Origin: a virus
Taxonomy: Duplodnaviria; Heunggongvirae; Uroviricota; Caudoviricetes
DNA: 9,825 nt
IMG/VR virus record: IMGVR_UViG_2695420874_000001
Coordinates: 1-9,825 of that record
Direction: 5' to 3' (one strand)
Shown: positions 1-3,000 of the stretch, in pieces
Layout of the letters: each line of letters opens with the position of its first letter
How positions within the stretch are numbered: position 1 is the stretch's first letter
Program-made: the position numbers

Positions 1-3000
1 TGGCAGACGCTGGAGCTGGTGTTCACCGCCGGCAGTGCCACGGTTACTCCGAAACTGAATGGAGTGGCTGGCCCGGCATTCCAGGTTATAAAAGACGGTC
101 TGACACTGGGACTGAATGCGCTGACGCTGACGGATGTTACAAAAAATGCAGCGTATGGCGTTGAGATAGAAAGTCTGGTGCTGGAGATAAATGCACCGGC
201 AGCATAATAAAAAAAGAGCCAGCGACTGACCTGAAAGAAGACGCTGGCTAAAAGGCCTTATATGTTTGTAGAGACTTATTTTTCACAGACAGCAATGATG
301 CCTGTCAATATATTATCAATATGCGGATTGTTTCAGTTACAGATGCTTTATTAAGGAAAAAAACAGCCAGCACTGACTTTCGGTGGAGAGGTGCTGGCTC
401 AGAAGGATAGTTGGATTTCACATGATACTTATGCCTGGCGGTATATTTTCTGACAGACAGTGACGGGTGTTGTCAAGATATTGTGTCATTTATAACCTGA
501 ATCAGGGGAGGCCGGAATGTTATCTGGCATTTTTAGCAGAGCCTGAATGCCATAATCACGGCTCCCGGAGTTGGCCGTCAGTGGGTGACACTGGCGGTTT
601 TTTTGTTTTTCTTTACTTTCATTTTCTGTCGGCGGTGACGGAGACATACATCAGATGGAAAAAATCACAACGGGTGTGTCATACACCACGTCAGCGGTGG
701 GGACGGGATACTGGTTACTGCAGCTGCTGGACAAAGTCTCTCCGTCCCAGTGGGTGGCAATCGGTGTGCTGGGGAGTCTGCTGTTTGGCCTGCTGACGTA
801 TCTGACTAACCTTTATTTCAAGATTAAAGAAGATAAGCGTAAGGTGGCGCGGGGAGAGTAGTCGATGAATAAACAATACGAACTGGTTGTAAAATGAATA
901 TTTCTAACTGAAAAAACGTTCCATGAGGTAAGAAAAGGTCACAGGCAATCAATAACAGGACGTGATGAAAGCCCCTTGCATTTGTGCGCTTTCTCTTTAG
1001 ATAGCAGCAGATACTGAAAATCTGAGTTGTCGGGGAGTCAGGGATACAGCTGTGCAAGAGTTGGTCATTGTGATTCCATTGAAATCCTGTATGCCATGAA
1101 GGGCAGGATTTTATGGCTACCTGAGCTTTGGTGATAGTAAGTTGAAAATTCGCATTTTTTGCTGACATGCGTAACGAGAATCCCATAAGCAGGGAGGACT
1201 TAATTCTTCATTAACCCATGCGTTGATATTATGTTTCAGCCGTTGAAGCATCAGCGGTGTTAATGTTGTGGTAATAATATCCAGCGTTTTATGTGAGATC
1301 TTACCGTAAGGGTCTGCAAGAATGCTGCTTGTTGCTTCGTTATTATCTGCCATCAGAAGAAGTAACTCTGATTTAACGTTTTCTGTCATTAGTTGTAAAA
1401 ATCTTCTGCGCAAACTTTCTTTACTGTTCATTTATATGGCTTCATTTGTTGTAATCTGCTGCGTCTCAAGGGATATGTTTATGAGAGCGACCATGAGTGT
1501 TGGATTATATACCTAACATATCAAGGGATTAGAAATCGATAAATCCCCATGAACGAAAAAATAAAATACGGCCTGTCGGCTGCCGTTCTGGCGCTGATTG
1601 GTGCAGGTGCTTCTGCGCCTGAAATCCTCGACCAGTTTCTGGATGAAAAGGAAGGTAACCACACCACGGCATACCGTGATGGTGCGGGGATCTGGACCAT
1701 CTGCCGTGGTGCCATTCTGGTGGATGGTAAGCCTGTTATTCCTGGCATGAAGCTGTCAAAGGAAAAATGCGACCGGGTTAATGCCATCGAACGTGACAAG
1801 GCGCTGGCATGGGTGGAGAAAAACATCCGGGTGCCGCTGACCGAACCCCAGAAAGCGGGGATCGCGTCATTCTGTCCGTACAACATTGGCCCCGGTAAGT
1901 GCTTCCCGTCGACGTTTTATAAACGAATTAATGCAGGCGATCGAAAAGGTGCCTGTGAGGCGATTCGCTGGTGGATTAAGGACGGTGGCAGAGACTGCCG
2001 TATCCGTTCAAATAATTGCTACGGTCAGGTCTCACGGCGTGACCAGGAGAGCGCGCTGGCGTGCTGGGACATCGACAGATAGCAGAATATTTTCCTGAAA
2101 AATGACGTTGGCCAACGCGGGTGGATAACACGAAATCCTGAAAACTGGTAAAACCTAAGTGAATAAAAGTAAAAACCCCGTTTGTTGGCAGCAAGCGGGG
2201 TTTTGTGTTTTCTGACCTTGAGTAAGGCAAGGGAGAAATTATGGGTAGGGAGGTACTTTCCCTGTGAGGAAGTATAAAAGATTCTTTCTGAGGTTGTCCA
2301 TTATGAAAGGCATTGAAGTGGAGACGCCAGCCAGTCTGGATTTAACAAGAGCGGCAGCTTTTGCCATTCGTATTGTGGCCATTGCTGTTCTGGTCTGGGC
2401 AATCCGTTGGTGGTGATATGAACCGTGTTCTGTGCGTGGTTATCATTGTCCTGCTGGTGGCCTGTGGTGCGCTTAGTCTGGGGCTGAATCATTACCGTGA
2501 TCACGCCATCATCTACAAAGAGCAGCGCGATAAAAAAGCCAGTGAGCTGGAGCTGGCGAACGCGACAATTACTGATATGCAGGTACGCCAGCGTGATGTC
2601 GCTGCACTTGATGCCAGATACTCGAGGGAATTAGCCGATGCGAGAGCTGAAAATGAAACTCTGCGTGCTGATGTTGCCGCTGGTCGTAAGCGCCTGCGCA
2701 TCAACGCCAACTGTCCAGGCTCCTTGCGTAAAGCCCCCATCACCTCCGGCGTGGATAATGCAACCGGTCCCCGACTGGCAGAAGCCGCTGAACGGGATTA
2801 TTTCATCCTCAGAGAACGGCTGATGGCAATGCAGAAGCAACTGGAAGGAGCACAGGAATATATCCGTACCCAGTGTATACCGTGATGTTTTGTTATGAAG
2901 GTGTTACTGGTAACGTTAAGGTAATTTAACAAAGAGTCAGTTCCGGACTTTATAGTGTGCTCAGTTCATGGACAAAAACGATTTCTGTGATAAATATTTT

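Follow-up and report, generated by a model that had tools for sequence, protein, structure and literature searches.

The two look-alike stem-loops in the spacer between nanS-p and holin S of the window (the whole stretch of DNA analysed, 9,825 nucleotides) are very probably the Rho-independent terminators of two tandem, co-oriented and paralogous sRNA genes, with unit 2 corresponding to PasA (EcOnc51) and unit 1 to EcOnc52. Both genes would lie on the strand opposite the prophage late operon. The two hairpins are a real finding but the sRNA family is already known from prophages of pathogenic E. coli, PasA having been described in two studies (Pearl Mizrahi et al., 2021, Sci Adv, PMC8550237; Zhu, Shabalina and Storz, 2026, bioRxiv, 10.64898/2026.05.13.724894) and EcOnc51 and EcOnc52 having been named in EHEC Sakai (Tree et al., 2014, PMC4104026). 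What is new is modest and comes down to the two units being tandem paralogues and to unit 1 having a possible promoter of its own. The transcript evidence for the window is transferred from the identical or near-identical loci of Sakai and E2348/69. The features of the region are as follows.

1-207, plus strand: nanS-p 3′ end (prophage sialate esterase)
176-186, plus strand: CTGGTGCTGGA, target motif of the PasA seed (published RIL-seq), at the 3′ end of the nanS-p coding region
209-215, minus strand: U7 tract of hairpin 1 (A7 on the plus strand), abutting the nanS-p double stop TAATAA (205-210)
209-274, minus strand: unit 1, the downstream paralogue (EHEC EcOnc52; EPEC RIL-seq entry pasA.E2348C_0688.IGR)
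217-249, minus strand: hairpin 1, with 5′ arm AGCCAGCG (217-224), 17-nt loop (225-241) and 3′ arm CGCTGGCT (242-249)
279-308, minus strand: promoter-like box of unit 1, with -35 TTGACA (308 to 303), 18-nt spacer ending TGT (287 to 285) and weak -10 GAAAAA (284 to 279)
357-363, minus strand: U7 tract of the PasA terminator, hairpin 2 (A7 on the plus strand), at the major PasA 3′ end
365-399, minus strand: hairpin 2, with 5′ arm AGCCAGCAC (365-373), 17-nt loop (374-390) and 3′ arm GTGCTGGCT (391-399)
441 to 357, minus strand: PasA-type sRNA gene (EHEC EcOnc51), 85 nt, 3′ end after U7, transferred by alignment from NC_011601.1 743499 to 743415
447-476, minus strand: promoter-like box of PasA, with -35 TTGACA (476 to 471), 18-nt spacer ending TGT (455 to 453) and weak -10 CAGAAA (452 to 447)
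573-609, plus strand: canonical terminator, 11-bp stem and T7GT5 (terminator scan)
655-861: holin S (Pfam PF04971)
1117-1431, minus strand: 104-aa ORF, the nearest dedicated minus-strand protein gene to the right of the hairpins

An earlier note had described two look-alike stem-loops with 17-nt loops lying 148 bp apart, each followed by a U-tract on the minus strand and both oriented as leftward terminators, and the sequence bears this out. The stems are near-identical with a start-to-start spacing of 148 nt, and on the minus strand hairpin 1 is followed by C and then U7 and hairpin 2 by G and then U7. A G+C-rich stem running directly into a U-tract, the hallmark of a Rho-independent terminator, is found at both hairpins on the minus strand only. 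Folding of the minus-strand RNA, a check which the note had proposed for both strands, gave -16.0 kcal/mol for hairpin 1 (z = -3.5) and -16.3 kcal/mol for the 9-bp stem of hairpin 2 that ends PasA (z = -3.3), and none of 200 shuffles reached such stability in either case. The plus-strand hairpins, being inverted repeats, fold equally well (-15.6 and -20.8 kcal/mol) but on reading the sequence 3′ of them no U-tract was found on that strand, AAAAGG and CAGAAGG standing there instead. Because the terminator scan allows loops of up to 8 nt, it picked up just the inner portion of hairpin 1.

Conservation of the stems in relatives, a second check put forward in the note, also favoured a structured RNA. 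Stem pair 224/242 is G-C in hairpin 1 and A-U in hairpin 2, a compensatory change. Over 15 distinct relatives 95.6% of stem cells were paired compared to 21-48% in slid controls, and both-sided changes were seen in four of the nine stem pairs (for example GCCAGCAC/GUGCUGGC vs GCCAGUAC/GUACUGGC), the other five being invariant by construction since the regular expression by which the relatives were gathered required them.

The spacer holding both hairpins is bounded by nanS-p, which ends at 207, and holin S, with the holin, lysozyme and Rz genes confirmed in the window by Pfam. The window is a 96-97% match to the nanS-p–holin region of Stx and lambdoid phages, and gene order and position (esterase, minus-strand sRNA, holin) are colinear with prophage PP2 of E2348/69 and phage YYZ-2008. 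Alignment of the E2348/69 PP2 locus to the window showed that both hairpins are present there. Of 5426 complete E. coli genomes, 692 have the region (median 5 copies), and among IMG/VR prophage loci unit 1 follows a PasA-type gene in 82 of 87 instances (not deduplicated). The view that no minus-strand gene is obvious to the right of the hairpins holds for protein genes but not for small RNA genes, which are present.

The identity of unit 2 rests on the published EPEC gene, the coordinates of which are given in Table S6 of Pearl Mizrahi et al. (2021, PMC8550237). The 25-nt PasA Northern probe GCCAGCACTGACTTTCGGTGGAGAG matches exactly (25/25) at 366-390, inside hairpin 2, and since it matches the plus-strand text it detects a minus-strand RNA. 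Compared to E2348/69 PasA the window copy is identical at 74 of 85 positions, with 44/44 in the 3′ 44 nt and 30/41 in the 5′ 41 nt, and the divergence of this 5′ part fits the published description of the common variant such that the window copy is probably ‘PasA-2’-like. Positions 337-413 are 100% identical (77/77) to EcOnc51 of Sakai Sp12. Position, strand, terminator, seed and U-tract are all as in PasA/EcOnc51. In EPEC E2348/69, PasA has been validated by Northern blotting and its stability is Hfq-dependent (Northern in a Δhfq strain, RIL-seq), with a major form of 85 nt and a minor form of 236 nt and with ‘homologues EcOnc51/EcOnc52’ noted (PMC8550237). The 3′ ends of these forms, which derive from RNA-seq coverage in E2348/69, align to window position 357 (major, 743415) and 206 (minor, 743264), and both sizes fit the window, 85 nt as 441 to 357 and 236 nt as 441 to 206. 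Both EcOnc51 and EcOnc52 gave terminator-flagged Hfq-CRAC peaks in three datasets each, with similar peak areas (Tree et al., 2014, PMC4104026). By analogy with the identical Sakai sequence (Hfq-CRAC) and the E2348/69 copy, the window PasA copy would be expected to bind Hfq.

The seed of PasA, GCCAGCACCU (RNA sense, about 398 to 389), lies in the 5′ arm of the terminator (Fig. S5, PMC8550237). Its published target list includes the E2348C_1246 site CUGGUGCUGGA and the E2348C_0688 site CUGAUGCUGGA with shared flanks GAUAGAAAGU...GAUAAAUGCA (PMC8550237), and the same text stands at 166-196 of the window. RNAduplex of the full sRNAs with the nanS-p 3′ end gave -38, indistinguishable from the shuffled value of -29 ± 4 (minimum -47). 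Such energies are uninformative because long sequences pair promiscuously, and the published 8-bp seed match was relied on instead.

Taken with the published data, the following sequence of events may be proposed. PasA transcription would start 30 nt past the consensus TTGACA of a putative promoter and would mostly stop at hairpin 2 and its U7, generating the Hfq-dependent sRNA of 85 nt that has been demonstrated in EPEC. Pairing of the seed would be in trans with mRNAs bearing CUGNUGCUGG, which according to RIL-seq would include the adjacent nanS-p mRNA at its 3′ end. Some transcripts would pass hairpin 2 and end at hairpin 1 and its U7, accounting for the published 236-nt minor form, while unit 1, by keeping a promoter-like box, would probably make an Hfq-binding RNA of its own of ~66 nt with a different seed, GCCAGCGUCU. 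In Hfq-dependent sRNAs the terminator hairpin with its U-tail also binds the proximal face of Hfq, and in both RNAs this element would play the same dual role of stopping transcription and acting as the module for Hfq proximal-face binding.

Hairpin 1 is the intrinsic terminator of unit 1 and a back-up terminator ending the 236-nt PasA isoform. Positions 197-274 are 100% identical (78/78) to EcOnc52 of Sakai Sp4 (1181998-1182075, minus strand), and the unit 1 RNA, if its own promoter is used, is predicted to be ~66 nt. EcOnc52 binds Hfq in vivo (Hfq-CRAC, PMC4104026), and in EPEC the corresponding entry pasA.E2348C_0688.IGR was the second RNA (RNA2), as sRNAs typically are, in every one of its RIL-seq chimeras. 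The earlier suggestion of a small duplicated structured RNA is upheld, with hairpin 2 ending the Northern-validated PasA and hairpin 1 ending both EcOnc52 and the 236-nt isoform. In the literature EcOnc52 has been regarded in two ways, as an unvalidated peak and as the tail part of the longer PasA form, and its description as a diverged tandem pasA copy with its own promoter-like box is absent from these accounts.

The two units share 72% identity over 114 nt (z = 11). A promoter box with TTGACA, the body of the RNA and its terminator all fall within the ~150-bp tandem duplication, with a TTGACA-N-CTGTCTGT-GAAAA box, ATAAGT and the terminator common to both units and unit 1 being 15 nt shorter than PasA by loss. 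The promoter-like boxes align with one another in the pattern TTGACA-N18(TGT)-NANAAA. From the last TTGACA base it is exactly 30 nt to the published 5′ end in both PasA and PasC, and we infer that this box is the PasA promoter. It is kept in all PasA and PasC loci, partly because of the choice of search pattern. More recently it has been suggested that the PasA 5′ end may come from cleavage of a longer transcript (Zhu et al., 2026, 10.64898/2026.05.13.724894). A simple promoter scan of the window did not call the TTGACA boxes, calling instead CTGAAA-N18-TATATT (336 to 307, minus strand), which overlaps the unit 1 -35. This was judged less likely to be a promoter as unit 2 is without an equivalent -10, having AATATC there, and the TTGACA boxes agree with where the 5′ ends have been mapped.

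That hairpin 1 is a mere back-up terminator of PasA, with unit 1 a decayed duplicate whose promoter is dead and the RNAs ending there being the 236-nt isoform or its processing products, is possible but rather doubtful. The minor form does run from the PasA 5′ end to position 206, the unit 1 -10 is weak with 15 nt lost relative to PasA, and Northern support exists for PasA without a separate one for unit 1. Unit 1 is identical in Sp4 and Sp12 such that CRAC reads multi-map, and those of EcOnc52 could derive from read-through PasA; in the peak table of Tree et al. (2014, PMC4104026) the Sp12 copy of unit 1 has no entry of its own. However, the CRAC peak area of EcOnc52 (1.03 million) matches that of EcOnc51 (1.09 million) even though the read-through form is minor, and the EcOnc52 peak has its 5′ boundary (274) 29 nt past a perfect TTGACA. 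Likewise the TTGACA...CTGTCTGTGA box of unit 1 has been kept in a divergent relative (L175) and in Sakai Sp4, where unit 2 has been removed by IS629.

The remaining readings place the activity of the hairpins elsewhere. Their acting on rightward late-operon transcripts, whether by terminating in both directions or by stabilising the 3′ end of nanS-p mRNA, with the minus-strand RNAs as by-products, would be in keeping with the plus-strand folding and with hairpin 1 beginning 10 nt past the nanS-p stop codon. It is improbable given that on the plus strand the A-tracts precede the stems and no U-tract follows them, that a canonical plus-strand terminator lies further on at 573-609 and that the RNAs of the minus strand are abundant and are both bound and stabilised by Hfq. 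The imperfect termination of read-in from the left, as raised in the note, is not supported either, the plus strand having no U-tract after either hairpin and a separate strong terminator at 573-609. The further option of a long antisense transcript from the right that covers the holin gene and ends at the hairpins draws on their orientation only, the nearest minus-strand protein gene being the 104-aa ORF, and is very improbable, with the published PasA 5′ end at window position 441, some 214 nt short of the holin gene, and with the 85 and 236 nt sizes both explained by transcripts starting there.

Other identities were considered for the repeat. Rfam 15 had no model that reached its gathering score anywhere in the window, and with the limit relaxed to E 10 for bases 1-1000 it returned only chance snoRNA and TCV matches (E 2-8). 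AgvB and AsxR, which occupy other intergenic regions, gave neither a covariance-model (RF02702, RF02703) nor a sequence match, and the Sp12 HnrS sequence, also from another intergenic region, is absent from the window. For PasC, only the first 12 of 25 probe bases (CGCTGGCTAAAA, 241-252; probe CGCTGGCTAAAACGGGTAGATGTAC) match, and with this match limited to the terminator arm and the unit 1 body unlike that of PasC, the window is without a PasC gene. REP-like or attachment-site repeats were rejected since the repeat does not extend beyond this intergenic spacer and shows the covariation of an RNA stem. AgvB, AsxR and HnrS (EcOnc10-12) do resemble the two units in being short Hfq-binding sRNAs of EHEC/EPEC lambdoid prophage late regions that are often convergent with the late operon, but AgvB and AsxR sit between the moron and nanS-p, and HnrS lies 3.2 kb further on in Sp12.

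PasC of E2348/69 prophage PP5 is a closer relative, with the same promoter box as PasA and a PasA-like 5′ body but with a terminator having a stem of the hairpin 1 type (GCCAGCG...CGCUGGC) that, like hairpin 1, abuts the nanS-p stop codon. Unit 1 and PasC agree at 47 of 59 aligned positions, all in the terminator region, and their bodies do not match. In one relative (L146) the two units stand in tandem and the loop of unit 1 is of the PasC type. PasC looks like a fusion of a promoter and 5′ body of the PasA/unit 2 type with a hairpin 1-type terminator, and the shared terminator stems look like recombination points shuffling 5′ bodies and terminators among prophages. Adjacent, co-oriented paralogous sRNAs with their own terminators, conserved ends and diverged inner regions are familiar from OmrA/OmrB in E. 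coli and PrrF1/PrrF2 in Pseudomonas, with PrrH a read-through product spanning PrrF1-PrrF2. PasA and unit 1 have the same tandem layout and spanning read-through, differing in that separate transcription of unit 1 is putative.

Zhu et al. (2026, 10.64898/2026.05.13.724894) reported that pasA copies are not tandem duplicates, contrasting them with OmrA/B and PrrF1/2, and their BLAST-based census left the diverged unit 1 uncounted. The chances are about even that, at a pasA locus formed by tandem duplication and divergence, unit 1 would be an independently transcribed ~66-nt Hfq-binding sRNA, with GCCAGCGUCU rather than GCCAGCACCU as the seed within its terminator and targets of its own, and that the architectures of the family would stem from terminator recombination. 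PasC would then combine a unit 2 5′ part with a unit 1 terminator, and single-copy PasA loci abutting nanS-p would be another product. If true, the current view, by which tandem duplication has no part in the origin of pasA paralogues, would need correcting.

No new biology is required to explain the hairpins, which amount to the rediscovery from raw sequence of a published prophage sRNA family (PasA/PasC, EcOnc51/52). Neither Rfam 15 nor RefSeq annotation includes the family, such that its hairpins will go on appearing as unexplained in genome scans. The Pas sRNAs bind Hfq and contact both virulence and core mRNAs in EPEC and EHEC. The presence of two related units at the locus bears on deletion and complementation work, as deletion of ‘pasA’ alone leaves unit 1 in place and the 236-nt isoform spans both.

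Two stem-loops are confirmed as real features of the window, with the arms, 17-nt loops, spacing (148 nt from start to start) and minus-strand U-tracts described in the earlier note all being read in the sequence:

217-249, hairpin 1, terminator of unit 1 (minus strand): 5′ arm AGCCAGCG at 217-224, 17-nt loop, 3′ arm CGCTGGCT at 242-249
365-399, hairpin 2, terminator of unit 2 (minus strand): 5′ arm AGCCAGCAC at 365-373, 17-nt loop, 3′ arm GTGCTGGCT at 391-399

Seven A residues precede each stem on the plus strand (209-215 and 357-363) and therefore the minus strand reads stem, one base and U7. 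As minus-strand RNA, hairpin 1 folds at -16.0 kcal/mol (z -3.5) and hairpin 2 at -16.3 kcal/mol (z -3.3), with 0 of 200 shuffled controls being as stable. The plus strand versions of both also fold, but the U-tract follows each stem on the minus strand alone, in keeping with the proposed orientation as terminators of leftward transcription. The prophage sialate O-acetylesterase gene nanS-p (SASA-family esterase) has its 3′ end in window 1-207, while 655-861 encodes a P21-type class II holin with lysozyme and Rz coming next (Pfam). Phages H-19B and YYZ-2008 and many Stx1a phages match the first 900 bases at 96-97% identity, and O157:H7 chromosomes match them at 100%. These annotations and matches therefore place the hairpins in a lambdoid prophage, within the 447 bp that separate nanS-p from holin gene S, with the hairpin-bearing sRNA strand opposite to the late operon.

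The feature belongs to the published PasA/EcOnc51 and EcOnc52 sRNAs and is thus already known. Five ‘pathogenicity-associated’ sRNAs were defined in EPEC E2348/69 by RIL-seq, with Northern blot validation and Hfq-dependent stability (Pearl Mizrahi et al., 2021, PMC8550237). PasA is a minus-strand transcript of NC_011601.1, flanked by the esterase gene E2348C_0688 and the holin gene E2348C_0689; it starts at 743499 and ends at 743415 in its 85-nt major form or at 743264 in its 236-nt minor form, and its EHEC homologues are given as EcOnc51/EcOnc52 (PMC8550237 Table S6). The Northern probe for PasA, GCCAGCACTGACTTTCGGTGGAGAG (PMC8550237 Table S6), matches 25/25 at window 366-390 within hairpin 2. 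Both hairpins are present in the E2348/69 locus, which runs colinear with the window, the alignment transferring the PasA 5′ end to window 441, the major 3′ end to 357 in the hairpin 2 U-tract and the minor 3′ end to 206, just beyond the hairpin 1 U-tract. The two PasA copies are identical at 74/85 positions (all of the 3′ 44 nt, 30/41 of the 5′ 41 nt), and the window copy is probably the common variant PasA-2, in agreement with its description by Zhu et al. (2026; 10.64898/2026.05.13.724894). No entry for the feature was found in Rfam 15, and AgvB, AsxR and HnrS were rejected as its identity after comparison.

In EHEC strain Sakai, EcOnc51 is an Hfq-CRAC peak in prophage Sp12 (2237479-2237555, plus strand) and EcOnc52 a peak in Sp4 (1181998-1182075, minus strand), each in three datasets with a Rho-independent terminator flag and similar peak areas (Tree et al., 2014, PMC4104026, Table S2). 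When these Sakai regions were fetched and compared, EcOnc51 matched window 413→337 (hairpin 2) and EcOnc52 window 197-274 (hairpin 1), each at 100% identity, and thus both stem-loops correspond to RNA 3′ regions bound by Hfq in vivo in EHEC. It is possible, if somewhat doubtful, that hairpin 1 is a back-up terminator for PasA and nothing more; the unit 1 copies are identical within Sakai such that EcOnc52 reads multi-map. No separate peak for the Sp12 copy of unit 1 is listed in the table of Tree et al. (2014, PMC4104026).

Two other readings raised in the earlier note fared worse. Imperfect termination of rightward read-in is unlikely, neither hairpin being followed by a U-tract on the plus strand and a separate strong plus strand terminator lying at 573-609, while an antisense transcript covering the holin is highly improbable given the PasA 5′ end mapped to 441. 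The 573-609 terminator (11-bp stem, T7GT5) precedes the holin start by 45 nt and may keep rightward transcripts that are not antiterminated from entering the lysis genes; alternatively, it may end a plus strand RNA convergent with PasA. The 467-654 stretch that includes it is nearly invariant among the window and the E2348/69 prophages PP2 (carrying PasA) and PP5 (carrying PasC), so conservation there exceeds that of the PasA 5′ part.

The remaining suggestion, a small duplicated structured RNA, was upheld. When 205-356 was aligned with 353-510, both read on the minus strand, similarity between unit 1 (EcOnc52) and unit 2 (PasA/EcOnc51) extended beyond the stems, with 72% identity across the 114 positions aligned (z=11 relative to shuffled sequences; z=3.4 for the portion upstream of the hairpins alone). 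Both contain, in order, AATAT-TTGACA, CTGTCTGT-(C)AGAAAA / GAAAAA, ATAAGT and the terminator, with 15 nt absent from the shorter unit 1. The published 5′ ends of PasA and PasC both lie exactly 30 nt past the last TTGACA base, and the EcOnc52 peak 5′ boundary lies 29 nt past the unit 1 TTGACA, which is the geometry expected for a sigma-70 -35 element. The 18-nt spacer ends in TGT, giving a correctly placed extended -10 ‘TG’, with weak -10 hexamers (CAGAAA, GAAAAA). Each unit is therefore read as promoter, short body and terminator, the promoters being putative; possible processing of the PasA 5′ end has been raised (Zhu et al., 2026; 10.64898/2026.05.13.724894).

Relatives comprised 80 IMG/VR loci collected via the holin protein and about 120 more via a conserved 32-nt pattern. 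Among pattern-bearing instances, not deduplicated, a PasA-type gene followed by unit 1 occurred in 82, a single PasC-type gene adjoining the nanS-p stop codon in 40, a single PasA-like gene (stem GCCAGUAC/GUACUGGC) adjoining nanS-p in seven and PasA followed by unrelated DNA in five. PasC of PP5 has a promoter box of the unit 2 kind and a PasA-like 5′ body, with a hairpin 1-type terminator stem (GCCAGCG...CGCUGGC) at the hairpin 1 position, and thus looks like a fusion of both units; at one locus (L146) the tandem arrangement has a unit 1 loop of PasC type. The look-alike terminators therefore look like recombination points. Pairing of the stems, a check proposed in the earlier note, was conserved: standard pairs made up 95.6% of the 9-bp basal stem cells in a set of 15 distinct hairpins (21-48% in slid-register controls), with four pairs changed on both sides (A-U/C-G, C-G/U-A, G-C/A-U), while the five inner pairs were invariant, partly because the collecting pattern demanded them. 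The region is present in 692/5426 complete E. coli genomes (median five copies), in line with the census of Zhu et al. (2026), a BLAST census from which a 72%-identical unit 1 would have escaped detection.

In Sakai Sp4, an IS629/IS1203 insertion replaces everything right of a breakpoint at about window 330, PasA being gone and unit 1 with its TTGACA box kept, and at another locus (L155) an insertion sequence lies within the PasA terminator. A fragment with the nanS-p 3′ end and unit 1 (2422-2660 of L205, 92% identity to window 200-361) is carried by plasmid pRM10386-2 of E. coli O26 (NZ_CP028124.1) and recurs on several 80-100 kb plasmids, adjoining IS600 and the uilS lactonase gene; another plasmid has the unit 2 body alone. 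In other lambdoid prophages (L016, L043), this position, some 230 nt upstream of the holin, is taken by a minus-strand sRNA-like gene of another kind, with TTGACA-N16/17-TATAGA, a roughly 85-nt RNA body and a terminator (GCCAGCGCAGA...TCTGCGCTGGCTCTTTTTT) adjoining the upstream stop codon, while the spacer of Stx2-phage-type loci (L041, L057) is short (164 nt) and holds a further, different hairpin. Convergent sRNA genes seem to have a hot spot in the esterase-holin spacer.

Between the holin and lysozyme genes, a 104-aa ORF (1117-1431, minus strand) had no match in Pfam; the equivalent position in strain PV15-279 has a RefSeq 90-aa hypothetical protein (WP_000138558.1), and Sp12 and YYZ-2008 have a plus strand YdfR-family gene in its place. 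Window 3837-3971 (minus strand) is an ECs_2255 homologue (DUF3950-like), 90% identical to Sakai Sp12 2234046-2234180, with similarity ending before the position of HnrS (EcOnc10), so the window prophage appears to lack this sRNA. Three cargo genes are present:

3351-3665, plus strand, PerC-family activator homologue
7339-8163, minus strand, Cu/Zn superoxide dismutase (sodC)
8462-9442, plus strand, NleB/SseK-family type III effector

The position of sodC and nleB shortly after the terminase genes suggests that the structural region has been rearranged or truncated.

In close homologues, minus-strand transcription yields an 85-nt RNA ending at hairpin 2, with a 236-nt RNA that reaches hairpin 1 as the minor product; Hfq binds both regions there, and PasA is destabilised without it. 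PasA RIL-seq chimeras include many mRNAs with a common motif, CUGNUGCUGG, with complementarity to GCCAGCACCU within the PasA terminator 5′ arm, and the leading targets listed include the two nanS-p paralogues (PMC8550237); in the window, the nanS-p 3′ end contains the motif at 176-186. Unit 1 may produce an independent RNA of about 66 nt with a putative seed, GCCAGCGUCU, distinct from that of PasA. On sequence comparison, the sole point beyond the literature compared is that pasA lies in a locus which is a diverged tandem duplicate, at odds with the statement of Zhu et al. (2026) that copies of pasA have not arisen by tandem duplication, and this tandem paralogy would be a modest refinement rather than a new kind of system.
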